DNA of 64,000 bases from the NCBI RefSeq assembly GCF_024700885.2, contig NZ_CP117016.1. One strand, written 5' to 3'. The position numbers and the translations under genes are program-made. The stretch is from Escherichia coli (GTDB lineage: Bacteria > Pseudomonadota > Gammaproteobacteria > Enterobacterales > Enterobacteriaceae). Shown in pieces: positions 5,673-40,567 of this stretch. The notes beneath the pieces are model-generated. The model had not been told where the DNA came from. It worked only from the letters and a program-made list of their open reading frames with translations, and searched no databases. Position 1 is the stretch's first letter. Each line of letters opens with the position of its first letter.

Positions 5673-6715
5673 GCCGACCGCTTCGGCGCATAGGTTGAAA
5701 TAAACCGCGCAATGGCTGGCCCCGTCAGCAAAATACTGAACAGGCGCAGGGTTTGCATCGCCATAATAAGCGCCATATCGGCATTGCTCCCTGCGGCGAT
5801 GACCGCCACGGTATCAAGCCCGCCGGGGCTGGTGGCGAGGTAGGCAGTCATAAAATCAATATGCATAAACCGGGTCAGTCCCCACGCCATACCTGCACAA
5901 ATAGCCAGCAGAGCAAAAATCGACAGCAAGATTTGTGGCAGCGGGCGCAATGCCCGCAGTAAGATTTGCTTATCGAAACCAAGACCAATCCGCCAGCCAA
6001 TTGCCATATACGCCATCGCCAGCAGCCATTCCGGGAGTTCAATCGTGATGAGCTGACCAGACTGGAGCACTGCGCCCGCCAGCATCGGGATGAGCATCGT
6101 GCCGGAAGGAAGACGTAGCAAACATCCCGCCGTACCGGCAACGACCGCGAGCAAAATCGTAAGCAGGAGATTAATGCTCACTGGCGGGAACCAGACGATC
6201 TGCTGGTTAACCGCTTCAGCGTTATCGCCCAGCATCATGCGGGTGACCAGAACAGCGGCCCCCGCGACGAACAGCACTCGCAGATATTGCATAAACGCCA
6301 CCAGGCGAATATCTGCGCCGTAATCTTGCGCCATAGCGACCATTGCCGCCGCGCCGCCAGGAGAAGAACCCCAGGCACCGGTATTTCCAGGCAGTGAGCT
6401 ATAGCGCACCAGTAGCCACCCAACAATGGCGCTGGAAAGCAGCGTCACCAGTAAAATTGTAAGCACGATCGGCCAGTTGACGGCCAGCGTGGTGAGAATC
6501 GAACCAGTGAGGTTTTGCGCAATCATGCAGCCAAGAATGGCCTGGGCGGCGAGAAAAGCAGAGCGGGGAAGTTGCAGAGTAATTCCGCGCATACTAAAGA
6601 TGATCCCGGCGATCATCGGTCCAAGTAATAGCGCCGCCGGGAGATGTAATCCGAGGAAGCCAATAGAAAGGAGAAGTGAGAGCACACATAACATTCCCCA
6701 CTGCAAAACTGGCAT
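5669..6715 (-). CDS. abrB: AbrB-family membrane protein (putative regulator/transporter), 348 aa
   Basis: Hydrophobic multi-pass ORF; start placed at [10 protein letters not shown] (ORF-track start 26 codons further upstream is probably not used) to match the K-12 length. Confidence 0.85.
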
Positions 6716-6867: not shown

Positions 6868-7929
6868 TTAGTTATAGTTAATCTTAAAAAGCACCACTGT
6901 ATCGAAGGGACCCGCTTCGATGGGGGTGCCGGGAATGGACGAAAGTTCAGCCGTATAGGTTTTTTCGTAGATCAGCATATCGCTGGTGAAATCAGCATAT
7001 TCGCTGTATTTGTTGAAAGTATAGGGTGAAGAATTTTCATCCAGCAAACGTAGCTTCAGTCCATTACCAATCAGCAGTGCTTTATCCTCTTCAATCAATG
7101 TTTCTTCGGTATAAAACGAAGAGCTGACCTTAAATCCGTCGGTGCACTGGTCATTTTGTGATTTTGTCGTCTTAATACTGAATGTTTTCGACATTGTGTG
7201 GCGGCGAATATCCAGCAGGTTAAATTTACCAAAATCAATCACCTGTGTTTCTGGTGAAATAGAAAAATTGACGCTGCAATCCAGTACACGAATGTTTTCC
7301 AGACCAGTAATATGGTATTTCAGGTTTTGGGCGGTAGGGTCTTCGTTAACGCTACCGGCACCATCAAATTGCACGACGATGTAGTCGCTAAGCGTACTTT
7401 GATAATCATGCGGCGGTATTTCGCGAATCTTAACGTATAACCGCATACGAGCAAGAAAGGTTCGCGACATGTGAATATTAGCGGGGTCACCCGAGCATAT
7501 TTTGTTCTGCCAGCCCATCGCGATAATCTGCTCAGGGGTATAAATGTTAATGTTCTTACTGTCGATACACTGGTTGGTGTCGATGCGGCTTTTCCCCTGG
7601 TTGGCGTCATAATCAACGCCATTGTAAGTTACGCCGAGTTGATAATAGCGATCCTGCACCCCCGGGTAGGGGTTTACCCAGGCGTAGACATGCTCACTTT
7701 CAAAGTTGCCGTTGGTATTGTTGTCACAATAGACGGGAATTTTAATATCGTCAGATTCCCAAATCTTATCGCCGGGTTTGGCATTGCCTGGTACAGCAAA
7801 AGGTTGAATCACTTCTGATTTTTCTACCGAACCACCGGATGAACCAAAGTAGCAGTTCAGGGCAAGCGCAGACTTCAACGGCAGAAATACCAGACAGATG
7901 ACGAGCAACACTCCCTTGCCAGCACTCAT
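6868..7929 (-). CDS. ybgO: Putative fimbrial adhesin/minor subunit YbgO, about 353 aa
   Basis: Last gene of chaperone-usher operon; signal-peptide-like N-terminus; start placed at MSAGKG, a 4-nt overlap with the ybgP stop. Confidence 0.85.
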
Positions 7930-23722: not shown

Positions 23723-23822
23723 ATATCTGTAATAAGAAATAGCCCTCGCCGCTTCCCTCTACAGGAATGGCGAAGGGTTGTCGGTTTCGACATGGTTGGC
23801 CATCGTATGATGGCCTTTTTTA
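23723..23822 (+). ncRNA. sdhX: Probable SdhX (RybD) 3'-UTR-derived sRNA of the sdh-suc transcript
   Basis: About 100 nt between the sucD stop and a strong intrinsic terminator; in E. coli this 3' UTR is known to give rise to SdhX; exact 5' end not determinable from sequence. Confidence 0.5.
23798..23822 (+). terminator. Rho-independent terminator of the sdh-suc operon
   Basis: Hairpin GGCCATCGTATGATGGCC followed by TTTTTT. Confidence 0.85.
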
Positions 23823-24387
23823 TGCCTTAAATGTTAACCACGGTCGAAATCTGACCGCTGGCTTGACTGCATGACCACAGCCACTGTGGATTGCCGCAAC
23901 CGACCGCAAGCCACGAATAAGAACGACGGCGAATTTCGAATCGTTACCTGATGCACTGGCTTCCCAGCGTTTGACCGTAGCGTTAAGTAAATCAACAAAA
24001 GCGATGTTCACCGCTTATCGTCAAGTCGTGCCATTTGTCAGCCAGGATCGGGTCTTTACCCCGGATATTGCAGCATCGCAAAAATTCTTAGAGGGATATG
24101 CTATAAATCAAAAATAAAATCTTTGTTGATTGTTTATCATAATATCCACAGATATGATAAATGATATCAATTTAATAATTTTCACTTAATGTGATTCCGG
24201 ATAATTCGAAAGGCGCTGTGCTTTTCGGATTATTATTATCTGATTAAGATATTTGTCACGCCAGGCTTACTGGGTTATAAATGTCAATCATGATTCTTAT
24301 AAATTATTTATTGCTGCTTTGGTTACCATTACTTCGTAATAAGTAATGTATTTTTGATGGTTTAAACTATTTTTAAGGGACGGCATT

Positions 24388-25293
24388 ATGCGAGGAAAAA
24401 TACCTAAAACGGAGCTGCTGGTGACTTTTGAGGTCGTCGCACGTCATGAAAGTTATACCAGAGCGGCAGAGGAGTTAGCGTTAACCCAAAGTGCAGTATT
24501 CAGACAAGTGAGTGCGCTGGAGGAATTTTTACATACTCCGTTATTTTCACACTCTAAAAAACGTATTTTTCTTAATGATGCAGGGAAGTATTACCTGGGG
24601 ATAGTAAAAGAAACATTAAATAAGCTGGAACGCGATACCAATACCATTATGACCTGGCAGCCTACGGTTCAGGTTATTGAACTTGCCGTGAATCCTACGT
24701 TTAGTACCCACTGGTTAATCCCAAATTTACATGAATTCACAAAGTTACATCCCGATATTATTGTTAATATTCATTCTTTAGCTAATAACGGCGATTTTCT
24801 TAATCGGGAGTACGATGCTGTCATTATGCGCGAAAATTTTTGCGCGCCCTGGGCGGAAGTAGAATATCTCTTTGAAGAGGAGATTTTGCCGGTATGCAGC
24901 GGCAGTTTGCTTGCAATGTCCGATCAAAAACTGTCAGTGGCAGAACTGCTTACAGAGTTACCACTTCTGCATCAAAGTACCCGTATTACTGGCTGGGAAG
25001 AGTGGTTTGCCTTATCTGGCGTTAGCAGTCCGCTGGTCAACAACGGACCACGTTTCGATTTGCTTTCAATGCTGATTGCCGCCGTGCGCTCGAATCTCGG
25101 CGTGGCGCTGTTACCTCGTTTCGCTATTCAACATGATTTGGATAGTGGCGATATGGTGATCCCCTGTGATGTGCCTATTCGTACCGGTAATCGTTTTATT
25201 ATGACGTGGCAGGAAGAGAAGTCTGACTCACCGCACTTGCAGCAATTTCGTGAATGGTTGCTGGCGAAATCGGTCGTACCGCAGGAGATGTAA
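24388..25293 (+). CDS. LysR-family transcriptional regulator, 301 aa
   Basis: N-terminal HTH (ELALTQSAVFRQVSALEEFL) and LysR substrate-binding-like C-terminal domain; convergent with the distal end of the methylaspartate operon. Confidence 0.85.
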   Translation: MRGKIPKTELLVTFEVVARHESYTRAAEELALTQSAVFRQVSALEEFLHTPLFSHSKKRIFLNDAGKYYLGIVKETLNKLERDTNTIMTWQPTVQVIELAVNPTFSTHWLIPNLHEFTKLHPDIIVNIHSLANNGDFLNREYDAVIMRENFCAPWAEVEYLFEEEILPVCSGSLLAMSDQKLSVAELLTELPLLHQSTRITGWEEWFALSGVSSPLVNNGPRFDLLSMLIAAVRSNLGVALLPRFAIQHDLDSGDMVIPCDVPIRTGNRFIMTWQEEKSDSPHLQQFREWLLAKSVVPQEM

Positions 25294-25326
25294 AACCTGC
25301 GCCTGGCGGGATGCCAGACGCAGTTA

Positions 25327-25929
25327 TTACCAGTCGATACCCGGCTGGGCCTGAATGCCGTTATCAAAAGCATGTTTGACGGGGCGGATTTCGCTTACCG
25401 TATCCGCCATTTTTAATATCTGACTGTGGCAACCGCGTCCGGTGACAATGACACTTTGTTGTGCCGGGCGGTTTTGCAGAGAAGCGATCACTTCTTCGGT
25501 GTCCAGATAATGGTAAGCCAGCATATAGGTCAGCTCATCAAGCACCACTAAGTCGTAACGCTTGTCAGCCAGCATCCGTTTGCTTTCCGACCAGACCTCT
25601 TTCGCCGCGTCGATATCCGCTTGCCGGTTCTGTGTCTCCCAGGTAAAACCGGTTCCCATAATATGAAACTCAACCCCCAGCGGCTGGAGAAGGTTGTATT
25701 CACCGTTGTCCCATTGCCCCTTGATGTACTGCGCAACCCCCACCGTTTTGCCATGACCCACCGCGCGCGTCACAGTACCAAACGCGGCAGTGGATTTCCC
25801 TTTGCCGTTGCCGGTGAAAACAATCAAGATCCCTTTTTTCTCTATCGCCGCCGCGACGCGCGTATCGACCTGTTCCTTCAATTTCTGCTGGCGCTGCACA
25901 TGCCGTTCAGTTGAAATTCGCGCTTCCAT
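25327..25929 (-). CDS. ATP:cob(I)alamin adenosyltransferase (CobA/BtuR family paralog), 200 aa
   Basis: Strong resemblance to E. coli BtuR as I recall it (IIVFTGNGKGKTTAAFG P-loop, VVLDELTY, VITGRG, SELRPVKHAF motifs); last gene of the minus-strand operon. Confidence 0.85.
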   Translation of the reverse strand: MEARISTERHVQRQQKLKEQVDTRVAAAIEKKGILIVFTGNGKGKSTAAFGTVTRAVGHGKTVGVAQYIKGQWDNGEYNLLQPLGVEFHIMGTGFTWETQNRQADIDAAKEVWSESKRMLADKRYDLVVLDELTYMLAYHYLDTEEVIASLQNRPAQQSVIVTGRGCHSQILKMADTVSEIRPVKHAFDNGIQAQPGIDW

Positions 25930-25938
25930 TCATTTTCC

Positions 25939-27591
25939 TTAATGTCCCGCAGGGCAACTGGCGCAGCGGTGTTGCTGCTCAAACTGACTAAAGAAATTAT
26001 TGCCTTTATCATCTACCAGGATGAATGCGGGTAAATTTTCCACTTCCATCATCCACACCGCTTCCATACCCAGCTCCGGGTATTCCAGGCAACGCAGACT
26101 TTTGACATATTCTTGCGCCAGTAACGCAGCTGCACCGCCAATACTTCCCAGATTGAAGCCGCCATGTTTGTGACAGGCATCGGTGACCTGCTGGCTGCGG
26201 TTACCTTTCGATAACATCACCAGACTGCCGCCAGCCGCCTGGAAGGTATCGACATAACCGTCCATTCGTCCACCCGTGGTTGGACCCAGTGAACCGCAGG
26301 CCATGTTCTCCGGTGTTTTCGCCGGGCCAGCGTAATAGACAATATGATGCTTCAGGTAATCCGGCATCGATTCGCCGCTATCCAGCCGCGCTTTTATTTT
26401 GGCATGGGCGATATCGCGCGCCACTACGATGGGACCACTTAACGACACGCGGGTGCCTACCGGTAATCTGGCGAGATCCTGCATCACGTCACGCAACGGA
26501 CGGTTTAGATCCAGCTGTACATGTTGCGCGTGATTTTCTTCCCGCAGTGAGGCTGGAATATATTGCCCCGGATTGTGTTCGAGTTTTTCCAGCCAGATAC
26601 CGTGTTTGTTAATTTTTGCTTTGATATTGCGATCGGCAGAACAGGAGAGCGCCATAGCTATCGGGCAAGAGCCACCGTGACGCGGCAGACGAATGACGCG
26701 AATATCATGAGCGAAATATTTACCCCCAAATTGCGCACCAATACCAAATTGCTGACTGGCGTTGAGCAACGCTTTTTCCAACTCAATATCACGGAATGCT
26801 TGTCCCTGCTCGTTTCCGCTGGTGGGCAAATTGTCGTAATATTTCGTTGAGGCCAGCTTGGCAACTTTTAAGGTTTGATCGGCTGAAAGCCCTCCGACGA
26901 CAAAGGCGATGTGATAAGGCGGGCAGGCAGCGGTGCCCAGCGATTTCATTTTTTCGATTAAAAATGCGGTCAGTTTTTCTGGTTGCAATAGGGATTTTGT
27001 TTCCTGATAAAGCGCGGCTTTATTGGCAGAGCCCCCCCCTTTATTAATACAGAGAAAATGGTACTCATCACCAGCGACGGCGCTGATATCAATCTGCGCC
27101 GGTAGATTGGTTTGCGTATTGACTTCGGTATACATATCCAGTGGCGCATTTTGTGAAAAGCGCAGATTATTTTCCTGAAAAGTGGTGTAAATGCCTTTGC
27201 TTAAGGCTTCGGCGTCGTTACCTCCGGTCCATATCTGTTGCCCTTTACTGGCAACAATAGTTGCGGTGCCGGTATCCTGACAGTTGGGTAATACCCCTTT
27301 TGCTGAGACTTCAGCATTACGTAATAACTGCAACGCAACGTATTTATCATTACTGCTGGCCTGCGGATCGTTAAGAATGCTGGCGACCTGTTGCAAATGA
27401 GCGGAACGTAAGAAAAAAGAGGCTTCATAAAATGCCTGCCGGGCAAGCAGCGTTAATGCTTCAGGAGCGATTTTTATCACTTCTTCGCCGTCTAATTCCG
27501 TTACTGTAATATGTTGATCGCTAATTAATGTATATTCTGTACCGTCTTTATTTTGTAGATACGGTTCTTGCCAGATAAATGGTTTGGACAT
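25939..27591 (-). CDS. fumD: Class I (FumA/FumB-like) fumarate hydratase family protein, probable mesaconase, 550 aa
   Basis: FumA-sized single polypeptide of the Fe-S hydro-lyase family; location in the glutamate mutase/methylaspartase cluster corresponds to the mesaconase/fumarase FumD described for E. coli O157:H7 (from memory). Confidence 0.8.
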
Positions 27592-27698
27592 ATTTCACTT
27601 TTCACCTTAAACGTTAGTGTTACTTAATTGCCGTCTAACTTCATGATCCGGCTTATAAAAATGCGTAGTCATTGGCTTCTGATTGCTTAAGATCCCCC

Positions 27699-28979
27699 TC
27701 AGGGCAGAGCAACGTTCGATTCATTGGGTTTTAATGCTTTACCCCGACAACCCTCGCCGAAATGTTCGCCTTCCCACCGACTCACCAACGCAGCGCCCAT
27801 TGCGTTGCTCATGACGTTTGTCGCGGAACGCCCCATATCAAGGAACGGATCAACGCCCATCAGCAAGATCAGCCCCGCTTCCGGAATATTGAACTGGTTG
27901 AGCGTGGCGGCGATAACCACCATTGAGGCGCGTGGTACGCCAGCCATTCCTTTCGAGGTCAACATCAGGATCAACAGCATGGTGATTTGCTCACCGATGG
28001 ATAAATGGATATTGCAGGCCTGGGCGATGAAAACTGTGGCGAAGGAGCAGTAGGCCATTGATCCAACGAGATTAAATGAGTAGCCAATGGGTAAGACAAA
28101 GCTGGCAATTTTGGGGGAAACGCCAAATTGCTCCAGTTTTTCAAGCGTTCCCGGAAAAGCAGCTTCAGAACTGGATGTGGTAAATGCCAGCAGGGCGGGT
28201 TCCGAAAGGGCACGGGTCAGGCGTCTGATGCAGGGGCCGACATAAACGATGGCCAGACCGATAAGCAGCACCCAAAGTAACAACATGGTGAAATAAAATT
28301 CACCCATAAAGATCCCGGCGCTCACCATAACTGCCAGTCCTCGTTCAGCAATCAATGCTGAAATAGCGGCGAATACGGTCAGGGGAGCGAAGAGCATGAC
28401 GTAGCCAGTGAGCTTTAACATGGCATGTGCCAGCGAATCTAAGGCGTGAACGATGGCGCTGCCTTTCTCACCAATCGCCGTCAGGCTACAGCCGAGGAAA
28501 ATTGAGAACACCACGATTTGCAAAATTTCATTGTGCGCCATGGCATCGACAATGCTGGTGGGGAAAGCATGCGAAATAAATACTTTTAGCGTAAAGGGTT
28601 CTGACGCGACCACTCCGGTGGTTTCGGCACCGTGTGCAACAAAATTAATTCCTGTGCCTGGCATGAAGAAATTTACCGTTATCAAGCCTAAGGCAATTGA
28701 CAGCAATGAGGCGCAAATAAATAAAAAGAGTGTTTTAGAAAAAATACGACCAAGGGCTTTGGCATCGCCCATTTTAGCAATACCTACCACCAGGGTAGAG
28801 ACCACTAACGGAGCGATAATCATTTTTATCAGTCGTAAGAAAATCGTCGTGAATATCGATATTTCTTGCGCATAGAGTTTTGCTGTTTCCGGTGAAGCAG
28901 TGTTATTGATCACTACGCCGATAATCATTCCAAGTACCAGCGCCAAAAGAATCATCGTGGTTAAACTTATTTTCTTCAT
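27699..28979 (-). CDS. Dicarboxylate/amino acid:cation symporter (DAACS, GltP/DctA-like) family transporter, about 426 aa
   Basis: Multi-pass hydrophobic ORF with the family-typical N-terminus; start placed at MKKISL (ATG at 28979), preceded by GGAGGA 7 nt upstream; the ORF-track start at 29000 is a GTG. Confidence 0.8.
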   Translation of the reverse strand: MKKISLTTMILLALVLGMIIGVVINNTASPETAKLYAQEISIFTTIFLRLIKMIIAPLVVSTLVVGIAKMGDAKALGRIFSKTLFLFICASLLSIALGLITVNFFMPGTGINFVAHGAETTGVVASEPFTLKVFISHAFPTSIVDAMAHNEILQIVVFSIFLGCSLTAIGEKGSAIVHALDSLAHAMLKLTGYVMLFAPLTVFAAISALIAERGLAVMVSAGIFMGEFYFTMLLLWVLLIGLAIVYVGPCIRRLTRALSEPALLAFTTSSSEAAFPGTLEKLEQFGVSPKIASFVLPIGYSFNLVGSMAYCSFATVFIAQACNIHLSIGEQITMLLILMLTSKGMAGVPRASMVVIAATLNQFNIPEAGLILLMGVDPFLDMGRSATNVMSNAMGAALVSRWEGEHFGEGCRGKALKPNESNVALP

Positions 28980-29139
28980 TTTTTCCTCCATCAGGTGCAC
29001 GGCGATAAATCAGAATCAGGAGAAGTAGATGCCCGAATAAAAATTCAGGCATCTACCTGCTATTACAACCTTACAAATAGCTGAAGTGTTGAACTGCAAT
29101 AAGTGACGGGATGTCAGTTGGCTAAAAGTGTTCGGATTT

Positions 29140-29457
29140 TTACAAATCGAAACTCATATTTAATAAAGGTGCATGTTGCTGTGCACCATAGACATCATTG
29201 TCACCTACATTCCCGGAGATAATATCTCGTGGCATGACGATTTTTACTGCGTTAGAAGGATCAAACCAGACAATACGATGAATAAAGTCAGGTTCAACAT
29301 GATATAAGCGCGCGATCAGTTCTGGGGTTAATTGCCCTGATGATTTAACTCGCTCATAGTTTTCTTTGGTTTTAAATAAAATATCTAAAACCAGTTCGTA
29401 AGGTCCGGCATTTTTCGAACGAATGACTTGCGCCAGTGAGACAATTGACTGTTTCAT
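29140..29457 (-). CDS. DUF4387-like small protein, 105 aa
   Basis: Small soluble ORF whose start overlaps the stop of the upstream DUF1446-like gene by 4 nt; family assignment from recollection of the DUF1446/DUF4387 pair. Confidence 0.6.
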   Translation of the reverse strand: MKQSIVSLAQVIRSKNAGPYELVLDILFKTKENYERVKSSGQLTPELIARLYHVEPDFIHRIVWFDPSNAVKIVMPRDIISGNVGDNDVYGAQQHAPLLNMSFDL

Positions 29458-30824
29458 GCCTGAACTCCTTCTGGCGTCACCTGTTCAATATGGAAATCAA
29501 AACGCAGAGCGTCGTTGGCTTCAATCAGGTGATATATGGAAAATTCGTATACCGGCCCGCCCTGAATATCAGAAGGGGAGAACGGGAATGCCAGGTTGCC
29601 TGCGGTAGCGATGCGGTTTTCATAGCCGTAGTGCAGCATAGTAGAGCGCACCAGCGAGCAAACGCTATTGGCAATATCCTGGGTCGGTGCAACTACATCA
29701 AGGACAATCCCCAGCTCATGCCCGGCAGTTTGCATCGGTTCATGGTCGCCCATCACCCCGTTTTTGCCGTACAGGTGGAAATTGATGCGAATGCTGTCAT
29801 CGTCGAGCGACAGGTTACGCGAAACGCTGGTTTTGACTTCATCGATGATTTTATCGATCCCGGCGATCATGATCGGGTCGCGCGTTCCGGCGATGGTCAG
29901 ACAGCGGAAGCCCACCCGTCGCGCACCTTCCAGTTTCAGGGCATACGGCGTTTCTTCATGCTTAGAACCGCTGACGTACACTTCGCCGTCATTGACCGCT
30001 TTAAATGTGCAGCCTTTCAGGTTCAACACGCCGCCAGGTCCTGGCAGGAAGTAGGGATCGGATTTCTCATACAGTGTGTGTGCAGCTGCTGACGTTTCGG
30101 TAAATTTACGCTTCGGATTAAATGTCTTCAGCGTAAAGCCGTTGTCATCAATGATGCCCATCGCACAGTCAGAGCCTGAGCCGGGCGTTGCGGCGATTGC
30201 CGCGCATTCAAGGATTTTCCCACAATGCAGCGCCAGACCTTCATCAAAGCCTTGCATGATCGGTAGCGCAGCAAAGCAGGCCGGGTCGTAAGCGCGCCCG
30301 CCCAGCACCACTTGCGCGCCTTCTTTCAGCGCCTGCTGGAAGGGTTCGATGCCCATTTGCGCGACGATATACGTACTTTCGTCAATCGCGTCGTGGGTTA
30401 ACGGCGGGACAAAATCCAGCGCCGTGATTTTGCCGTTATCCAGCGCCTGGTGGACGATGGCTTTGTCAACGTCTGCCGGGATCAGCGCCATCGAGAACGA
30501 GAGGTGCTCTTCCCGGGCAATCTCATGAATTATTTCTCGGCACCACTCCAGGTGTGGAGCGGCACCAGAACCGCCGGCCGTTCCGATCACCACCGGTATA
30601 TTATTTTGCACGCCTGCGGTGATCATATAGCGCAGATCGCGCTTGACCCCTGCGCGATCGGTAAACGGTTTGCCCGCCCCGAGGTAGTGGGGGCCAGGAT
30701 CGGAAGAGCCAGCATCAACGGCGATCAGATCGGGCGATTCTGCCATCGCTTTGCGGAAGCTCTCCTCCGGGAATCCATACCCGAGGATTGCCGTAGGCGA
30801 TAAGACTTTAAAAGAACGAGCCAT
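29454..30824 (-). CDS. AtuA-like (DUF1446) family protein, 456 aa
   Basis: About 450-aa soluble ORF resembling acyclic-terpene-utilisation AtuA-like proteins (my recollection); 3 nt downstream of the methylaspartase gene in the same operon. Confidence 0.6.
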   Translation of the reverse strand: MARSFKVLSPTAILGYGFPEESFRKAMAESPDLIAVDAGSSDPGPHYLGAGKPFTDRAGVKRDLRYMITAGVQNNIPVVIGTAGGSGAAPHLEWCREIIHEIAREEHLSFSMALIPADVDKAIVHQALDNGKITALDFVPPLTHDAIDESTYIVAQMGIEPFQQALKEGAQVVLGGRAYDPACFAALPIMQGFDEGLALHCGKILECAAIAATPGSGSDCAMGIIDDNGFTLKTFNPKRKFTETSAAAHTLYEKSDPYFLPGPGGVLNLKGCTFKAVNDGEVYVSGSKHEETPYALKLEGARRVGFRCLTIAGTRDPIMIAGIDKIIDEVKTSVSRNLSLDDDSIRINFHLYGKNGVMGDHEPMQTAGHELGIVLDVVAPTQDIANSVCSLVRSTMLHYGYENRIATAGNLAFPFSPSDIQGGPVYEFSIYHLIEANDALRFDFHIEQVTPEGVQA

Positions 30825-30827
30825 TTG

Positions 30828-32069
30828 TTAATCCTTAGCCTGCAACAGCGCGATAGTACGATTCATTTCGTTGAAGACGATATCGAGGCCTTCGTCAAAG
30901 CCCATCCCTGGCTTTACCAGCATACGCATAGGGCGAGCGGCAAGGGCGATGTGGACACAGGTGCGGGCACTGACATCAGTTTCATTGCAGGTGCCGCCCT
31001 GGTACGCTTCCATGCTGTGGCTATTGCAGTAAAGAACCGCATCGACGATGTTGTGAATACTGCCCAGATCCGGGGTTTTGATTTGCACCATGTGACAACT
31101 GGCGGCATCAGTAAAATCAACAATATCCTGGTAGGTGTTACACCATTCATCGGCCACAATTTTCACGCCGGAACCGAGGCGCGTCAGCTCTTTGGTAATC
31201 GCGGTCAGCAGGCGAATTTGATCGGGCTTGTTACCGGCATCGACCGGACCTTCAATGTAGAGCGGCAGGCCTTGCGCTTCTTTTTCCAGGCTGGCGATGT
31301 ATTGCGCACAGCGAAGCGGATCCATATCGAAGATCAGACCGATAGTGCCGTATACATCGATGTGCAGGGTAGGGTGGTAGCGTGCGCTGGTGCGCTTGCT
31401 CAGAATACGATCCGACAGCCAGCGGACATATTCGCGCAGTTTTTCACCTTTAAAGCCCAGTTTCTCTTCGACGTTATTAATCAGTGCATGGGGCAGCACG
31501 TCGATGCCCTTAAGGATCATCTTATCGACGGCGATATATCGATCGTCGCCGCTCTGACCAAATAATGGAATGGATTCCGCCACGCGTGGCAACTGCCATT
31601 CATCACAGACCACTTCAGTTTTCAGACGGCCGGTTGCCAGCGCGGTAGCATCAAGCAGCGCCTGTGATAATCCGTAGCGCACGGCGGTATGCAGCAAGTT
31701 GCCGTCAATACGCAATTTGTCGAAGAAACGGGCATTCGGCAGGAAAGCATCTACATCGCGGCCTACCAGTAATGGCTTGATATGGTCGTTGAGGAACGGA
31801 ATAAAGTGCTCTGCGAGGAACAGTGGATCGCGACCACCTGCCCCGGAATACTGTACGGCAGCACAGTCACCTACGGCGACCGCGCCGTTTTCCAGAATCA
31901 ACTGTACCGATACGCACTCCCCGGCCTGACGTACGGCGTTAAACCCCTGTGTTACTGGCTCCCCGGTATAAAAAAAGCCGTCGTGACCCGCTCCGTTTTT
32001 TATCGCCTGCTGGTCATCGAAATAGAATGAGGAGTAGCCAGCGGTGAACAGGGCCTGTTTTATTTTCAT
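30828..32069 (-). CDS. 3-methylaspartate ammonia-lyase (methylaspartase, enolase superfamily), 413 aa
   Basis: N-terminus MKIKQALFTAGYSSFYFDDQQAIKNGAGHDGFFYTGEPVT and length are typical of methylaspartase; start overlaps the glmE stop. Confidence 0.9.
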   Translation of the reverse strand: MKIKQALFTAGYSSFYFDDQQAIKNGAGHDGFFYTGEPVTQGFNAVRQAGECVSVQLILENGAVAVGDCAAVQYSGAGGRDPLFLAEHFIPFLNDHIKPLLVGRDVDAFLPNARFFDKLRIDGNLLHTAVRYGLSQALLDATALATGRLKTEVVCDEWQLPRVAESIPLFGQSGDDRYIAVDKMILKGIDVLPHALINNVEEKLGFKGEKLREYVRWLSDRILSKRTSARYHPTLHIDVYGTIGLIFDMDPLRCAQYIASLEKEAQGLPLYIEGPVDAGNKPDQIRLLTAITKELTRLGSGVKIVADEWCNTYQDIVDFTDAASCHMVQIKTPDLGSIHNIVDAVLYCNSHSMEAYQGGTCNETDVSARTCVHIALAARPMRMLVKPGMGFDEGLDIVFNEMNRTIALLQAKD

Positions 32070-33514
32070 TATGGTCTTCCTATTAATTTACTGTGGGATA
32101 CAGCATTGATGTCATCTACAACCATCTGGAATGTCGGTTGGCGTCCTTCAAAGCGTGCGCGTTCCGCAACGTAATCGTGGTGGAGGTCGAGAATATCTTT
32201 TGGCAATGGAACGGCTCCGGCTTCCAGTACGCGTATCGCGCCGGTGTTGTCACGGACCGGAAGAATTTTGCCCGCGTTGCAGGCGGCTGGCGCAAACGGC
32301 ACATCCAGTACGCCCGCTTCAAATGCCAGCACCGTACCGCGCGCAATATCACCATTACCCAGTTCGAACACTTTATTCAGTACCGCGCGAACCTCGCTCT
32401 TAATCAGTTCAATTTCCAGTTCAACCGCAGGGCAAGGCGGGAATTTCTGCTCGTTGACCATGTTGAGCATCTGGCGGGAGGCTTTCAGCCCCTGAATGTT
32501 GGCAGCGGCAGTCGGGATGCCCCAGGCTTCGTGCGGACTTTTGGTGATGACTTTGGTGGCACCAGACATCCCCGCGACGGCTGCACCCCAGGAGATAATG
32601 GCGAACGCTTTCGATTCGTCTTCCGGAAAGCCGCCCATCCACTGGTGAAACACGGTACTTAATTCATAGTCGGTATAGCCATAGCTCTGAAAGTATTCGT
32701 GTGCAAGTTCACGCAGAGACTGGATCGCCGCGACATCCTGCGTCAGGCTGCCGACCTGTCCATAACCAACGGTGATAGATTTCACACCCTGTTCCAGCGC
32801 CAGTAATCCTTCGATTATCGCGATAGAGTGCGAGATAAACGGCGGGATCAGCGTACCCGTTAGTGGGCCAAACGGTTCGCGGTTGATGCGGATCCCGTGT
32901 TCTTCATACATCCCCATTAAACGATCGCAGTACTGCCAGTCGCGGATCGATTTTTCCAGCGTTACGCGCTTGGCATACGGAATATTGTAGGAAATGCCGC
33001 CGCCTTCATAACTGGTAAAGCCGCTGGCCATCGAGATTTCAGCCAGCAGACGCGCATCTGGCGTGCCGTGGCGGATCTGTAGCGGTTTTTGCAAAGTTTC
33101 GGTGAGGCGACGGCAAGCTGCGACGCCGTGGTTAACTACCGGTAAACCGTTCAGTTTAGAGGTTCCGGCTTCGATGGATTTTTTAATCCCTACAGCCGCT
33201 TCTTCGTACCGATTCAGACGGGTATATGCATCGATGGTGCTCGGCAGCAGATCGCACTCTTCTTGTGGTGTTTTCAGTAGTTCGATGTGTTCGTCCATCA
33301 GCGCCACGCCTGCGCGCGGTTGGCTAAGAGTTTTACCTTCCTTGTCTGCTTTCAGCAGGGCAAGAGAGAAGCGTTTATGCTCAGGAATGGTTTGTTGGTA
33401 TTTAACGCCATCTTCAAAGTTTTCAACATCCTTGCCGGTTTCCCAGGTTTTCAGTACCTGTTGCCGCTCGGTCATGAATTCGTCATGGGTTAATTTCTTA
33501 TTTCGAAGTTCCAT
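32069..33514 (-). CDS. glmE: Glutamate mutase epsilon (catalytic, E) subunit, 481 aa
   Basis: Length and sequence consistent with methylaspartate mutase E chain; sits between glmL and the methylaspartase gene as in clostridial glmS-glmL-glmE clusters. Confidence 0.88.
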   Translation of the reverse strand: MELRNKKLTHDEFMTERQQVLKTWETGKDVENFEDGVKYQQTIPEHKRFSLALLKADKEGKTLSQPRAGVALMDEHIELLKTPQEECDLLPSTIDAYTRLNRYEEAAVGIKKSIEAGTSKLNGLPVVNHGVAACRRLTETLQKPLQIRHGTPDARLLAEISMASGFTSYEGGGISYNIPYAKRVTLEKSIRDWQYCDRLMGMYEEHGIRINREPFGPLTGTLIPPFISHSIAIIEGLLALEQGVKSITVGYGQVGSLTQDVAAIQSLRELAHEYFQSYGYTDYELSTVFHQWMGGFPEDESKAFAIISWGAAVAGMSGATKVITKSPHEAWGIPTAAANIQGLKASRQMLNMVNEQKFPPCPAVELEIELIKSEVRAVLNKVFELGNGDIARGTVLAFEAGVLDVPFAPAACNAGKILPVRDNTGAIRVLEAGAVPLPKDILDLHHDYVAERARFEGRQPTFQMVVDDINAVSHSKLIGRP

Positions 33515-33749
33515 TGATTGCAGCCTTAATTGTTATAGGGTTAAGCATTGAATACTGGTGCGCGCGGCGGCCAGTGGATCGACTCTGGCGACGTTTGCCA
33601 GCAGTGGTAATAGCCCCCGGGAATCGCGGTAATATTCAAATTCGGTCGGTAAGAGAATGCGTTTACCGTCGTCGTTTAACTCGCGGTATTTCAACCAGTG
33701 ATGCATATCGAACTGACTGGCACGCGAGAGCCATCCGCCGGAACCAACG

Positions 33750-33757
33750 ACTTTACG
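33750..33757. repeat. Target-site duplication (left copy) ACTTTACG
   Basis: 8-bp direct repeat immediately flanking the IS26 left inverted repeat. Confidence 0.85.
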
Positions 33758-34577
33758 GGCACTGTTGCAAATAGTCGGTGGTGATAAACTTATCATCCCC
33801 TTTTGCTGATGGAGCTGCACATGAACCCATTCAAAGGCCGGCATTTTCAGCGTGACATCATTCTGTGGGCCGTACGCTGGTACTGCAAATACGGCATCAG
33901 TTACCGTGAGCTGCAGGAGATGCTGGCTGAACGCGGAGTGAATGTCGATCACTCCACGATTTACCGCTGGGTTCAGCGTTATGCGCCTGAAATGGAAAAA
34001 CGGCTGCGCTGGTACTGGCGTAACCCTTCCGATCTTTGCCCGTGGCACATGGATGAAACCTACGTGAAGGTCAATGGCCGCTGGGCGTATCTGTACCGGG
34101 CCGTCGACAGCCGGGGCCGCACTGTCGATTTTTATCTCTCCTCCCGTCGTAACAGCAAAGCTGCATACCGGTTTCTGGGTAAAATCCTCAACAACGTGAA
34201 GAAGTGGCAGATCCCGCGATTCATCAACACGGATAAAGCGCCCGCCTATGGTCGCGCGCTTGCTCTGCTCAAACGCGAAGGCCGGTGCCCGTCTGACGTT
34301 GAACACCGACAGATTAAGTACCGGAACAACGTGATTGAATGCGATCATGGCAAACTGAAACGGATAATCGGCGCCACGCTGGGATTTAAATCCATGAAGA
34401 CGGCTTACGCCACCATCAAAGGTATTGAGGTGATGCGTGCACTACGCAAAGGCCAGGCCTCAGCATTTTATTATGGTGATCCCCTGGGCGAAATGCGCCT
34501 GGTAAGCAGAGTTTTTGAAATGTAAGGCCTTTGAATAAGACAAAAGGCTGCCTCATCGCTAACTTTGCAACAGTGCC
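33758..34577 (+). mobile_element. IS26 (IS6 family), complete 820-bp copy
   Basis: 14-bp terminal inverted repeats GGCACTGTTGCAAA (33758-33771) and TTTGCAACAGTGCC (34564-34577); internal transposase matches IS26 Tnp as I recall; flanked by 8-bp direct repeats. Confidence 0.93.
33821..34525 (+). CDS. tnpA: IS26 transposase Tnp26 (DDE), 234 aa
   Basis: MNPFKGRHFQRDIILWAVRWYCKYGISYRELQEMLAERGVNVDHSTIYRWVQRYAPEMEK is the canonical IS26 transposase N-terminus (from memory); start placed at the ATG 18 nt inside the ORF-track start. Confidence 0.93.
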   Translation: MNPFKGRHFQRDIILWAVRWYCKYGISYRELQEMLAERGVNVDHSTIYRWVQRYAPEMEKRLRWYWRNPSDLCPWHMDETYVKVNGRWAYLYRAVDSRGRTVDFYLSSRRNSKAAYRFLGKILNNVKKWQIPRFINTDKAPAYGRALALLKREGRCPSDVEHRQIKYRNNVIECDHGKLKRIIGATLGFKSMKTAYATIKGIEVMRALRKGQASAFYYGDPLGEMRLVSRVFEM

Positions 34578-34585
34578 ACTTTACG
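34578..34585. repeat. Target-site duplication (right copy) ACTTTACG
   Basis: 8-bp direct repeat immediately flanking the IS26 right inverted repeat. Confidence 0.85.
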
Positions 34586-35748
34586 CACGGTTGTCAGGTC
34601 ACGTCCCATCTGTAAATCGACATTGCCGACGCAGGTGCAGACCTCTTTTTTGGTGCCCGCATGTCTTTCGGTGGCATAACCCACACACAGTCCGGCCAGG
34701 ACGGTATCGAAATATTTTTCTTCTGCATTCGCGGGTAAGTAGTCGGGATGAGCGACTAGATGGCGGAGGTAATGATAAAAAGCGTCCAGCTGTGCGGGTT
34801 GCTGAGCAAAATTCACATTGACTAACTCTTTCGCACTTTCACCAACCACCATTGCCGAGACGCGCATTCCCAGATCGCCTTCCACCGTCCGTTTCACGAA
34901 GGGTTCCGGTACGCCGTGTAAAACGGTGTCGGGCGAGAGCGTGTTGGCACAGGCGGAATAGACATCGGTGGTTGCGCCACCCATGTCGATCAGCATGAAC
35001 TCTTTCCAGCTGTGATCGACGTTACTGATTGCCTTAACCAGTTCAAAGACCGTCCATGGTGTCGGCATTGGTTCTTCGCCTGTTTTATCAACAATGACAT
35101 CCAACCCTTTCCCTTTAACGATGCGTTTAAGGAATATGTCGCAGATAGCCTGGCGTGCAGCTAAAGGGTTCGGATGGTCAAGATCGGGCAGAACGTTGTC
35201 GACGATGGTCAGGTCTTTATGCCCGAGGATCTCCTGCACCTCGTCCTGAATATCCCGGTTTCCGGCATAAATAATGGCGCAGTCGAGTTTGGATTCTGCC
35301 AACACACGGGCGTTATTCAGTCCGTAGCTTTCTTCTCCGCCATCGGTGCCGCCGGTGAACAAGAGAATATCGGGCTGCGTTTCTTCCAGTGCCTGGATAT
35401 CACGGCGGTTCAGCTTGTAGGCGTAATATTGCGCAATTTTAGCACCCGCAGAGTGAGCGGTTACTTTCGCGGTTTCCAGGGTGATAGAAGGCACCAATCC
35501 CATTGCGGCAACCGCCAGCCCACCTTTGGCAGAGGAGGAATACTTCAATGCAACCTCACCACTGTTTAACAGGGGGAGGGCATTATCTACGTTTAACACC
35601 TGGTCCAGGCTGGAGAAAAACCCCTTCGCCAGATGATGGGTGGTGGTTGGGGTCAGAACGTGGTTAACCAACGTTAACGCGTCCCCCTCCCGGGTGAAGA
35701 GGGCTGCTTTGGTCCACGTCGAACCAATATCGACAGAGACGATTTGCA

Positions 35749-36198
35749 TCAGATTGCCTCTTCAAGAATGCGAGTATCAACGTCATGACGTTGGTTGATA
35801 TCGTGGGCCATCAGCTGACAAACATCTTCTAAGTCATGACTTGGGGAAAAGACGCGATCAAATCCCATCTCTTTGAACTTGGTTTCCACGTCAGCGAAGT
35901 CATGTTTTCCGACCACCAGGTTACCGCCCACATAGAGCAGGATGTTACCCAGCCCACGCTCGATGCAGCGTTCGCGCATGCCCAGACAATCGATATCGCC
36001 ATGCCCATAGATAGAGGAGACGACAATCGCGTCAGCACCAGTTTCAATGGCAGCATCAATATATTCGTCCTGGCTGACCATTACGCCCAGATTAATAACT
36101 CTGAAGTCATGGTTGCTAAAAACGCGGTCCAGAACTTTATTGCCTACTGCATGGCAGTCCGCGCCAATAACGCCAATCACAAGTGTTGCTTTCTTCAT
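35749..36198 (-). CDS. glmS: Glutamate mutase sigma (B12-binding, S) subunit, about 149 aa
   Basis: [24 protein letters not shown] contains the DxHxxG cobalamin-binding signature; start at ATG 36198 preceded by AGGA; stop overlaps the glmL start (ATGA). Confidence 0.88.
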
Positions 36199-36745
36199 GG
36201 GTAATCCTTTGTAAGACAGAGAGTAAAATAAGTTACACACGTCGTATTTATGGCCGCTCATAACGGCACAGGTTTAATATCACAGGAGTGTCTTTATCTG
36301 ACCGTAATGTTGCAATTGATCTATTTTCAAAATGTCTTTCGGGAAATGATTGTTTAAAGTGTGTTTTCAAATTCTCATTTTAATTCAGTGTGTTATGTCA
36401 ACTAATGTCATGAATGTTAAATTTTTAAAATTAACTTGATTTGATGTATTGAGATAATTGTGATCAACTTCTAATTTGCATTTTTGTGACGTGGCTTTAG
36501 CCATGAGTAAATACATTTCATAAAAGTTAAGTCGAATTTCACTGCAATTCATCTCTGCTTAATGTAAAAATAATGTTGAAAATAACAAATAATTAATGAT
36601 TCATGCGAATTATGACCTTTGTTAGCTCTTTTGATTTTTCGTAAAAAAGAAAAGTACATGAAGGTGCTACCAGTACGAGTAACGTTAATCAAAAGTTTTA
36701 TTACGTCTGGCAATAACGCAGGCCATTTTTCGCGACAGGAGGGAT

Positions 36746-37168
36746 TTAATCAGTATAATCCTCATACAATAGGTCAGGATTTACTGAACCGTTAACGGGG
36801 ATTTGGTGTTGAAATTTAGAAATGGCGGAGTCAATTAATGAAGACAATATCGGAAAAATGACAGTGTCAGAATTAATTTCAATTAATCCTTCTCGTTGTT
36901 GACCAAAAAAGATATTTATCTTGATTTCATTTGTACTACGGCAATCAATATGCAGTAATTTTTGATCGCTGAGATTTTCTGTTTCATAAATGTTTTTGGC
37001 GATAGTCGGATGTATTGATGCCAGACATCTGCTCAGATAAGCCAGATCCTTTAGGGAACACCCCGCTGAGTAGAGGATGTCAGAGAATTTTTGTGTGTCA
37101 ACTGTTGTCTCTGAAGCGTATGTTGCATTGACAGGAAGGGTGTTGAAAGAGATTTGAGATGGGATCAT
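36746..37168 (-). CDS. Hypothetical protein, 140 aa, no recognisable family
   Basis: ORF in a markedly AT-rich block; co-directional with and 80 bp downstream of the 314-aa orphan ORF; coding status unverified. Confidence 0.45.
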   Translation of the reverse strand: MIPSQISFNTLPVNATYASETTVDTQKFSDILYSAGCSLKDLAYLSRCLASIHPTIAKNIYETENLSDQKLLHIDCRSTNEIKINIFFGQQREGLIEINSDTVIFPILSSLIDSAISKFQHQIPVNGSVNPDLLYEDYTD

Positions 37169-37248
37169 TATTTAAATCTTTCCGTGAGTAATAAAAATTA
37201 ATCCCCGGGCATTGTTTAGCAATATTTGCCACAGGGAATATATAAAAA

Positions 37249-38193
37249 TTAAAGTATTTGATTGGCATCGGTTAACTGATCAATAACCAGTGCCAGATTG
37301 GTAAACATTTTGAAAAAGCGATACTGGCTCGGAATATCTCTTTCAAAGACGAAACATTCAATGTCATTGTTTGAAAAATAAAGGACTAGTGTTGCTGATT
37401 CGTCAGGAAAAATATGGAAATATATCTGGTTACCAGAAGGAGGATAGTCCAGATGAAGGGTATCTTTGCCCGTCACATACCTGTTGTGGTCGTGGATGCT
37501 GCGCTCACACTTCATCAGAGGTGTCATGATACTCATGTATTCATCTGATGTTAATATATTAAAATCACCATCCATTTTAAAGAAACGATAAAGTAACAGT
37601 ACATCCTCTTGCGTAACCGGTTCGTTTGTTTTTAGAGGGAAATAAGTGGGAACCAGAAGATGAGGTTCTAATCTATTTTGTTGAGCGCTATAACTAAATT
37701 TGAACATAAATTCCGGATCGCTCATTAATTGAGCGACATAATTATGCCTGGCTTCAAAAATTTTAACTTTTATCAGGTTAAATAAGTCTGTTTCGTTATC
37801 CTGTATTAAAAGACATTGGCCATAGCAGCCAGGCTTTTTTTCATTATAAGCAGAAACGGTTATTCTGTCAGGAGTGTCAACGTTATATCCAAAAGCCAGA
37901 TAGTGACCTTCCTCATCGAGATTTGTTTCCAGGTTATTTAAATTCATCACATGAAGTGTTTGCAATGCTGATTCAATGAGCTGTTGACTCTCTGAGGTAA
38001 ATGTTTCGCGCTGCGTTGTATAAAGTGTATCGATTCCAACGACTATCCGATGTGGGTCAAGGATGGCGGCAATCATCTTTATTACCTGCACAGTCATGGG
38101 TGATGTCATTGATTCTTTATCTGTTTTTAGAGGATCATTAGATGGCCAACCTGAGAAGCGATTGACAGCAGAACTGATATTATCAGGACTCAT
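37249..38193 (-). CDS. Hypothetical protein, 314 aa, no recognisable family
   Basis: Longest ORF in an AT-rich region with no competing frame; no signal peptide or transmembrane segment evident; no motif I can assign. Confidence 0.55.
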   Translation of the reverse strand: MSPDNISSAVNRFSGWPSNDPLKTDKESMTSPMTVQVIKMIAAILDPHRIVVGIDTLYTTQRETFTSESQQLIESALQTLHVMNLNNLETNLDEEGHYLAFGYNVDTPDRITVSAYNEKKPGCYGQCLLIQDNETDLFNLIKVKIFEARHNYVAQLMSDPEFMFKFSYSAQQNRLEPHLLVPTYFPLKTNEPVTQEDVLLLYRFFKMDGDFNILTSDEYMSIMTPLMKCERSIHDHNRYVTGKDTLHLDYPPSGNQIYFHIFPDESATLVLYFSNNDIECFVFERDIPSQYRFFKMFTNLALVIDQLTDANQIL

Positions 38194-38647
38194 AGCAGCA
38201 ACCTCATTGTAATCAAGCGAGGCGCTGAGCGTACTCGGCTATAGAAAAACTAACTTGCAAAAATCGCTCATTTTTCATTTATCAGGCGAAAGTGGTCTCT
38301 GTTCACTCAGAAACAATCACTCCCGCTAAGTCATACCTGTATCATCGATACATTTAAGTGATTATTACTAATGAAACAATAACATAACGGGCTTACGGCC
38401 GGTGCTCATAAACGCAACAATCAATTAACTTTGATAAAAATATGTTATGTAAAATAGCAACAAATTGGCTAATCTAATCAATTGGTATTATAAAAAGTGG
38501 ATAAGGCGGTTCTGTTAAATAAAACACTGGTTTTTTATCTATACCTTTTCATTGTAATAATTGTGTTGCATAAATATTTCACAATAAATTAACAATAAAA
38601 TTACCAATGATCTATGGTTTATACATAATTAACATATTTGGTTGGTT

Positions 38648-38661
38648 TTGATATAAATCAA
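38648..38661. promoter_or_regulatory. FNR-type site TTGATATAAATCAA in the cydA upstream region
   Basis: Perfect TTGAT-N4-ATCAA palindrome about 340 bp upstream of cydA; cydAB is known to be FNR/ArcA regulated. Confidence 0.55.
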
Positions 38662-38998
38662 TTTTTAATTCTTGAAAAAAATCTGCAAAACACGATAAAT
38701 TGTCGTAGATCAAATTGGTGAGATCGTGACAATTTCGCTATAAATTGATCACTGTCGAAAAATGCAAATTTGCTCAATAAAAACCTGTTTATTGTAAGGA
38801 TTTTGCGGCGTAATATAATTACGGGATCAATTTGGTTTATTCATTAACATATTTGTAACTTTTTTATCATTGTCTTTTCCTCTTTTGATGAAATGGCAAC
38901 GATAGAGGCGAGCAAATAATTTTGTATTGGGGCATGCGTGTGACCCTTTCTAACGGGGTTCACTCTCGGAGTCTTCATGCGATGAGCAAGGAGTCATG

Positions 38999-40567
38999 AT
39001 GTTAGATATAGTCGAACTGTCGCGCTTACAGTTTGCCTTGACCGCGATGTACCACTTCCTTTTTGTGCCACTGACGCTCGGTATGGCGTTCCTGCTGGCC
39101 ATTATGGAAACGGTCTACGTCCTTTCCGGCAAACAGATTTATAAAGATATGACCAAGTTCTGGGGCAAGTTGTTTGGTATCAACTTCGCTCTGGGTGTGG
39201 CTACCGGTCTGACCATGGAGTTCCAGTTCGGGACTAACTGGTCTTACTATTCCCACTATGTAGGGGATATCTTCGGTGCGCCGCTGGCAATCGAAGGTCT
39301 AATGGCCTTCTTCCTCGAATCCACCTTTGTAGGTCTGTTCTTCTTCGGTTGGGATCGTCTGGGTAAAGTTCAGCATATGTGTGTCACCTGGCTGGTGGCG
39401 CTCGGTTCAAACCTGTCCGCACTGTGGATTCTGGTTGCGAACGGCTGGATGCAAAACCCAATCGCGTCCGATTTCAACTTTGAAACTATGCGTATGGAGA
39501 TGGTGAGCTTCTCCGAGCTGGTGCTTAACCCGGTTGCTCAGGTGAAATTCGTTCACACTGTAGCGTCTGGTTATGTGACTGGCGCGATGTTCATCCTCGG
39601 TATCAGCGCATGGTATATGCTGAAAGGTCGTGACTTCGCCTTCGCTAAACGCTCCTTTGCTATCGCTGCCAGCTTCGGTATGGCTGCCGTTCTGTCTGTT
39701 ATTGTTCTGGGTGATGAATCTGGTTACGAAATGGGCGACGTGCAGAAAACCAAACTGGCTGCTATTGAAGCCGAGTGGGAAACGCAACCTGCGCCTGCTG
39801 CCTTTACTCTGTTCGGCATTCCTGATCAGGAAGAGGAGACGAACAAATTTGCGATCCAGATCCCTTACGCGCTGGGCATCATTGCAACGCGTTCCGTGGA
39901 TACTCCAGTTATCGGCCTGAAAGAACTGATGGTGCAGCATGAAGAACGCATTCGTAACGGGATGAAGGCGTACTCTCTGCTCGAGCAACTGCGTTCTGGT
40001 TCTACCGACCAGGCGGTTCGTGACCAGTTCAATAGCATGAAGAAAGACCTCGGTTACGGTCTGCTGCTGAAACGCTATACGCCAAACGTGGCTGATGCGA
40101 CTGAAGCGCAGATTCAACAGGCAACCAAAGACTCCATTCCGCGTGTAGCGCCGCTGTACTTCGCGTTCCGTATCATGGTGGCGTGTGGCTTCCTGCTGCT
40201 GGCAATCATCGCGCTCTCTTTCTGGAGTGTCATCCGCAACCGCATTGGCGAGAAAAAATGGCTGCTGCGCGCCGCGCTGTACGGTATTCCGCTGCCGTGG
40301 ATTGCTGTAGAAGCGGGCTGGTTTGTGGCTGAATATGGCCGCCAACCGTGGGCTATCGGTGAAGTGCTGCCGACAGCTGTGGCGAACTCGTCACTGACCG
40401 CAGGTGATCTCATCTTCTCAATGGTGCTGATTTGCGGCCTGTATACCCTGTTCCTGGTGGCAGAATTGTTCTTAATGTTTAAATTTGCACGCCTCGGCCC
40501 AAGCAGCCTGAAAACCGGTCGCTATCACTTTGAGCAGTCTTCCACGACTACTCAGCCGGCACGCTAA
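38999..40567 (+). CDS. cydA: Cytochrome bd-I ubiquinol oxidase subunit I, 522 aa
   Basis: [41 protein letters not shown] matches CydA; start at the second ATG. Confidence 0.96.

Follow-up and report, generated by a model that had tools for sequence, protein, structure and literature searches.

A pair of AT-rich orphan genes, apparently restricted to Escherichia, between glmS and cydA in Escherichia coli

Location, composition and coding features

Two co-directional genes with no functional annotation lie on the minus strand between glmS and cydA in a 64,000-nucleotide stretch of Escherichia coli DNA (RefSeq assembly GCF_024700885.2, contig NZ_CP117016.1), the whole of which we call the window. 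The names orfS, for the open reading frame (ORF) of 140 aa, and orfL, for that of 314 aa, were coined in this analysis. The original prediction described two minus-strand ORFs of these lengths, 80 bp apart, and their coordinates are confirmed. The features of the locus are as follows.

36746-37168, minus strand: orfS, 140 aa, ATG start, from the ORF list
37249-38193, minus strand: orfL, 314 aa, ATG start, from the ORF list
37169-37248, minus strand: spacer between orfL and orfS, 80 bp, 30% GC
38194-38995: divergent orfL/cydA intergenic region, 802 bp, 33% GC, holding the orfL promoter/leader and the long cydAB regulatory region
36199-36745, minus strand: listed feature between the end of glmS and orfS

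The neighbours are glmS (annotated at 35749-36198) on the downstream side and the divergent cydA, with a start at about 38996-38999, on the upstream side. Sliding GC content runs from 0.27 to 0.41 across 36.2-38.9 kb and from 0.50 to 0.59 in both flanks. For the block 36262-38995 (2734 bp) it is 0.349, against 0.506 for the whole window, which puts a figure on an AT-richness that had been remarked on uncomputed. The two genes themselves are 37-38% GC, and their GC content at third codon positions (GC3) is 0.34 in orfS and 0.35 in orfL, compared with 0.51-0.64 in glmS, glmE, cydA and cydB.

Both products are acidic, with isoelectric points (pI) of 4.65 for orfS and 4.79 for orfL, and neither has a transmembrane segment or signal peptide (maximum 19-aa Kyte-Doolittle hydropathy 1.25-1.33), just as first supposed. 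Both N-termini are polar, with many Ser, Thr, Pro and Asn residues and few that are charged or Leu; residues 1-25 include eight Ser/Thr, two Pro and no Lys or Arg in orfS, and six Ser/Thr and three Pro in orfL. Five Cys and His residues of orfL are invariant (C127, H150, C229, H234 and H260).

The ribosome-binding site of orfL is good (GAGG, 8 nt before the ATG) and that of orfS weak (GGAAAG, 9 nt before the ATG). A terminator scan found no convincing terminator-like site in the 80-bp spacer, which is about 78% conserved in E. albertii, and since the spacer holds none the two genes could be co-transcribed. A promoter scan was uninformative, returning 13 promoter-like sites where 11.3 were expected. 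Rfam searches of the AT-rich spacers, at E-values up to 1, gave no match; a cobalamin riboswitch upstream of the B12-dependent mutase was among the elements looked for. The start of orfL is overlapped (ATGA) by an upstream ORF of 5 codons, which was dropped as a candidate; the ATG of this ORF is not conserved in E. albertii.

Searches for homologues and folds

Neither product has a significant match in Pfam, NCBIfam or PHROGs, no PADLOC family is matched by either, and PDB sequence profiles give no match with an E-value below 0.9. Larger collections return only the proteins' own families. A word-indexed search of 5.8 billion clusters and a search of AFDB50 find matches confined to Escherichia and Shigella, and when a profile was run exhaustively with HMMER against 1.84 billion representatives, the 14 matches were all fragments of orfL itself. 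A search of one genome per species across 100,044 bacterial and archaeal species again returns only Escherichia and Shigella, together with contigs from mis-binned metagenome-assembled genomes (MAGs). Fold searches find no fold for either product, and the AlphaFold2 models, with pLDDT of 44.1 and 41.7, are unusable; the low-confidence model of orfS orders its elements as a beta strand, three helices, three strands and a helix. The original prediction recognised no family, motif or fold, and sequence, profile and structure searches all come back empty as well. Judged by these searches, orfL and orfS are genuine orphans restricted to the genus Escherichia.

Several candidates were discarded. Three 'distant' homologues of orfS turned out to be artefacts that stem from frameshifted reads and from a chimeric contig: P0046 and P0047, at 50-59% identity, and P0038, which has a Pfam domain. 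Paralogy of orfS and orfL, or an internal duplication in orfL, was prompted by similar helix/three-strand/helix predictions and by a BLASTP match between orfS 45-87 and orfL 226-262; both ideas were rejected (BLASTP E=0.15, hhalign probability 0.9%, Smith-Waterman z of -0.7 to 1.5 against shuffles). Copies of orfL and orfS that are 97-99% identical to those of E. coli also occur on MAG contigs labelled Collinsella sp. and Citrobacter sp.; these are almost certainly mis-binned contigs of E. coli.

Age of the orphan block

In E. albertii, orfL occupies the same place, as a 314-aa gene with a product 65% identical to that of the window, in a full-length cluster of 131 member sequences. Its distance from cydA is 804 bp, against 802 bp in the window, and identity along the whole of this intergenic region is 85%, higher than in the coding DNA of orfL (about 77%). 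Between E. coli and E. albertii the synonymous divergence (dS) is 0.27 for cydA and 0.50 for orfL. The methylaspartate (glm) cluster is missing from the E. albertii locus, where sucD and an outer-membrane-like gene follow orfL instead, and orfS has decayed there to a frameshifted remnant of 31 aa. In a further lineage, Escherichia sp. MOD1-EC7003, the two genes are present alongside the glm cluster, both of them broken: orfL is interrupted near codon 116 by a repeat of about 130 bp, and orfS lacks codons 1-93.

As for mobile copies, neither gene occurs in 50,697 phage records, and three 'plasmid' matches, in records of 0.7-4.9 Mb, come from mislabelled chromosomes. Because orfL is syntenic in E. 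albertii and MOD1-EC7003, and phage and true plasmid copies are absent, the orphan block is an old vertical resident that predates the divergence of E. coli and E. albertii. The original prediction had taken the pair for recently acquired cargo, a view that these comparisons contradict. The block is also ancestral to the cydA side of the hypervariable sucD-cydA locus. Low GC content beside an island, then, need not mean recent acquisition, as this block has stood at 35% GC since before the two species split.

In MOD1-EC7003 the ~130-bp repeat resembles a miniature inverted-repeat transposable element (MITE). Inverted MITE-like copies, 86% identical, lie at 6345-6474 and 7084-7213 of the contig, along with a partial third copy, and the second copy adjoins the 300-bp deletion that removes orfS codons 1-93.

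The state of the E. albertii locus also bears on whether the two genes form a unit. Since orfL is intact there while orfS has decayed, orfL appears not to need orfS, and the pair does not look like an obligate two-part module. A toxin-immunity or toxin-antitoxin system, or a small anti-phage defence module, would suit two small co-directional genes lying 80 bp apart without an intervening terminator, AT-rich, variable in presence among strains and of unknown function, and the low density of transposon insertions given below could then reflect an essential antitoxin. The uncoupled fates of the two genes speak against such a module, as do the lack of any model match in PADLOC, Pfam or PHROGs and the lack of a defence-island context, and we consider it very improbable. 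For the same reasons the two-gene cassette proposed at the outset, whether toxin/immunity, effector/chaperone or defence, is not upheld.

Evidence for purifying selection

It might be argued that the ORFs are non-functional, being accidental or decaying frames in AT-rich spacer DNA that annotation pipelines have carried forward; the original prediction had indeed suggested degenerate remnants, and had named random AT-rich ORFs as a possible refutation. Consistent with this are the missing homologues, the want of a confident fold (pLDDT 42-44), near-zero transcripts, relaxed ratios of non-synonymous to synonymous divergence (dN/dS) and repeated pseudogenisation in Shigella, the E. albertii type strain and MOD1-EC7003. 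Other evidence makes this quite improbable. The longest stop-free run in the AT-rich block is 329 codons; when the block was shuffled 2000 times, this length averaged 87 codons and peaked at 203. None of the 2000 shuffles, at this GC content of 35%, reaches the 314 codons of orfL, and 27 reach the 140 codons of orfS. Furthermore, orfL is exactly 314 codons long and free of indels across E. coli alleles and E. albertii, its alignment with the latter being gapless through 213 substitutions. In that comparison, 71 synonymous changes at 194 sites and 142 non-synonymous changes at 748 sites (dS 0.50, dN 0.22, dN/dS 0.44, Fisher p=7e-7) amount to a significant synonymous excess. Ratios across comparisons range from 0.33 to 0.61 for orfL and from 0.15 to 0.55 for orfS (Fisher p=0.003 to 7e-4), compared with 0-0.16 for glmS and 0-0.006 for cydA. 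These values, significantly below 1, point to selection that is relaxed relative to glmS and cydA yet clearly purifying.

Both genes are also intact in deeply divergent E. coli alleles, such as that of strain 24A16CRGN010 (92% nucleotide identity over 36200-38995). The ribosome-binding site of orfL is conserved, and the last 100 bp upstream of its ATG (38194-38300) show 93% mean column identity among E. coli alleles and E. albertii (four lineages), well above the conservation of the orfL coding sequence (about 77% to E. albertii). Such conservation suggests a promoter, operator or leader in the ~100 bp 5' of orfL.

Distribution and the variable sucD-cydA locus

The window segment is 100% identical to that of E. 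coli MLI114, and the pair is carried by 1134 of 5426 complete E. coli genomes (about 21%). In 39 of 40 rows sampled across the ranking the two coding sequences are annotated, the remaining row having an IS4 insertion. Carriers include O157:H7, O145:H28, the environmental strain SMS-3-5 and many human (including clinical), animal and environmental isolates. All copies are annotated 'hypothetical protein', so that about one-fifth of sequenced E. coli carry two genes without functional annotation.

At the same locus other E. coli have mngRAB (REL606) or a tetratricopeptide repeat (TPR) gene (LF82). With the B strain REL606 taken as representative of the K-12 arrangement, the original prediction was right in setting the pair between glmS and the cydA region, where K-12 has mngRAB. 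The pair lies at the cydA-proximal edge of a segment that differs from K-12-type strains. No remnant of orfL was detected by tblastn, at E-values up to 1, in either REL606 or LF82.

In the E. coli genomes inspected, the pair always accompanies the glm cluster, on the same strand, and the conserved 802-bp control region is common to orfL and cydAB. The genes might then be an accessory or regulatory part of the B12-dependent methylaspartate pathway, or influence the expression of cytochrome bd via the divergent promoter region shared with cydAB. We give this very little credence. Klebsiella, Citrobacter, Salmonella, Yersinia and Morganella are reported to carry the glm cluster (PMC4682846), whereas homologues of orfL and orfS are found in Escherichia only, and E. 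albertii has orfL without any glm genes. Because glm-bearing enterobacteria lack the pair and orfL occurs without glm, the orphan block is independent of the glm module (methylaspartate, glutamate fermentation). Moreover, about 79% of E. coli have no orfL yet keep the same CydA protein (WP_000884361.1 in REL606, LF82 and carrier strains), and a GC3 of 0.35 sets the pair apart from its neighbours.

At least four different occupants make the sucD-cydA interval as a whole (23723-38995 in the window) a replacement hotspot. One, in 21% of E. coli, comprises a LysR regulator, a cobalamin adenosyltransferase, fumD, gltP and the glm cluster plus the two orphans. The others are the single TPR-repeat gene of LF82, the mngRAB of REL606, and, in E. 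albertii, the outer-membrane-like gene (258 aa) with orfL. The cydA-proximal 373 bp (38623-38995) fall into deeply divergent alleles: the window, Sakai, LF82 and E. albertii are mutually 85-99% identical, and the REL606 allele (K-12-type, with mngRAB) is only about 80% identical to the other four. By this alignment, the common K-12-type cydAB regulatory DNA is the outlier, perhaps replaced together with mngRAB.

Within the glm cluster of the window, glmL is interrupted by a complete 820-bp IS26 (33758-34577), which is bounded by perfect 14-bp terminal inverted repeats (GGCACTGTTGCAAA) and contains the Tnp26 ORF at 33803-34525; an 8-bp target duplication (ACTTTACG) accompanies it. In MLI114 and Sakai glmL is intact (1389 nt); as a result of the insertion, this methylaspartate mutase accessory gene is broken in the window strain.

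Expression, silencing and phenotype

Published RNA-seq of O157:H7, which is not the window strain, gives transcript levels for the pair of 0-5 reads per kilobase per million (RPKM) in 11 conditions (PMC4048457), and the mRNA of ECs0766 rises by log2 1.05 at 90 min after a shift from 35 to 14 C (PMC4057180). In published transposon data, insertions are found at only 23-25% of the TA sites of orfS and orfL, against 56-61% in neighbouring genes. The low transcription and the few insertions fit silencing by nucleoid proteins, and the orfL-cydA spacer contains two matches, each with one mismatch, to the TCGATAAATT motif. Silencing of the H-NS type is plausible for the orphan block on this indirect evidence, and of the recent, possibly silenced cargo first envisaged it is the silencing that stays plausible and the recency that falls.

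In seven infant-rabbit colons, mutants in orfS gave log2 fold changes of -6.0, -6.4, +0.2, -5.0, -0.8, -6.9 and -4.2, that is, -4 to -7 in five of the seven, and were classed as 'conditionally depleted' by CompTIS; orfL mutants were not depleted. The orfS figures rest on 5-7 TA sites and a tight bottleneck, and failed the stricter Con-ARTIST consensus. We treat the depletion as a weak hint, not a result. Were it real, the pair would make a small and tractable determinant of colonisation, specific to Escherichia and new in fold; otherwise these are ordinary silenced hypothetical genes. A bolder proposal builds on the former: orfL, orfS or both would represent an unseen fold family used in the gut, for example in secreted or host-interacting proteins, orfS being needed for colon colonisation and the invariant Cys and His residues of orfL forming an active site. 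We regard this as rather unlikely.

A further suggestion is that one or both products are substrates of a type III secretion system (T3SS), resembling effectors of the espX/espY/espL/espR type and secreted through the locus of enterocyte effacement (LEE) or E. coli T3SS 2 (ETT2). The pair is restricted to Escherichia, in which E. coli and E. albertii are lineages known to carry T3SSs. The GC content of 37-38%, the acidic soluble products without a Sec signal, the silence of the genes in broth and the possible colonisation defect of orfS mutants would all agree with such a role, and the N-termini, rich in Ser, Thr, Pro and Asn with few charges, look compatible with it, although N-terminal composition alone is a weak predictor. 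On the other hand, no effector-family homology appears in Pfam, NCBIfam, PDB or fold searches, the context is neither that of a phage nor of an exchangeable-effector locus, and, apart from O157:H7 and O145:H28, intact copies occur in SMS-3-5 and in many isolates of human, animal and environmental origin, which may or may not have a T3SS. Neither gene is known to belong to the published Sakai effector repertoire. On balance, secretion by a T3SS is unlikely.

Interpretation

The explanation we favour, and think probably correct, is that orfL and orfS are genuine, fast-evolving, Escherichia-restricted genes, old at their locus, silenced and expressed in a niche, with an accessory binding role. 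Both products are predicted to be acidic, soluble alpha/beta proteins without a signal peptide or a known catalytic motif or family. Their near-silence in the laboratory would most likely come from H-NS-type nucleoid proteins coating the 35%-GC block, with expression confined to a particular niche. Because no motif is recognisable, the products may bind other macromolecules instead of catalysing reactions, and might have an accessory host- or gut-associated role in which orfL functions independently of orfS.

Several observations weigh against this explanation. Selection is relaxed at a dN/dS of about 0.4, and database clusters fairly often hold truncated variants of orfS. The orfL of the E. 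albertii type strain is frameshifted and both genes are broken in Shigella and in MOD1-EC7003, which shows that they are plainly dispensable. An AT bias unrelated to fitness could account for the low density of insertions. Neither gene is listed in the searchable supplements of one enterohaemorrhagic E. coli (EHEC) H-NS paper, and no direct evidence was found for a protein product, H-NS binding or activity. A binding protein rather than an enzyme is deduced from the absence of a motif, and the invariant Cys and His residues of orfL could form an active site of an unrecognised kind.

In kind the pair is ordinary, a case of silenced hypothetical genes such as are already catalogued, with two mildly interesting twists in its long persistence at low GC and the possible in vivo phenotype of orfS.

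Comparison with known systems

Type II toxin-antitoxin and polymorphic toxin/immunity pairs likewise consist of two small, adjacent, co-directional genes whose presence varies among strains. Unlike these, orfL and orfS have no recognised toxin, antitoxin or immunity domain, their pairing is not conserved, and their setting is neither mobile nor defensive. The class I T3SS chaperones (CesT/SycE-like) share with orfS a length of about 140 aa, an acidic product (pI 4.65), a mixed alpha/beta prediction and a position adjoining a larger gene of unknown function. However, the order of elements in the low-confidence orfS model differs from the alpha-beta3-alpha-beta2-alpha order of the chaperones, there is no Pfam or PDB match, and in E. 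albertii orfL, which would be the partner, persists although orfS has decayed.

The backbone non-LEE effector genes espX, espY, espL and espR resemble the pair in being AT-rich, chromosomal rather than phage-borne, largely limited to Escherichia and silent in broth, and in encoding soluble proteins with polar N-termini. The pair differs from them in lacking sequence or fold similarity, repeat architecture and evidence of secretion.

The ORFans of enterobacteria that lie in AT-rich, H-NS-silenced DNA are like the pair in having no homologues beyond one genus, a GC content about 15 points below that of the genome, scarce transcripts in vitro, few transposon hits, relaxed but real purifying selection and variable presence. 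ORFans in such DNA are usually read as recent horizontal acquisitions. Binding of H-NS is putative in the present case and, unlike the usual ORFans, the pair occupies a locus whose synteny extends over E. coli, E. albertii and one more Escherichia lineage, which implies that its low GC content has long persisted.
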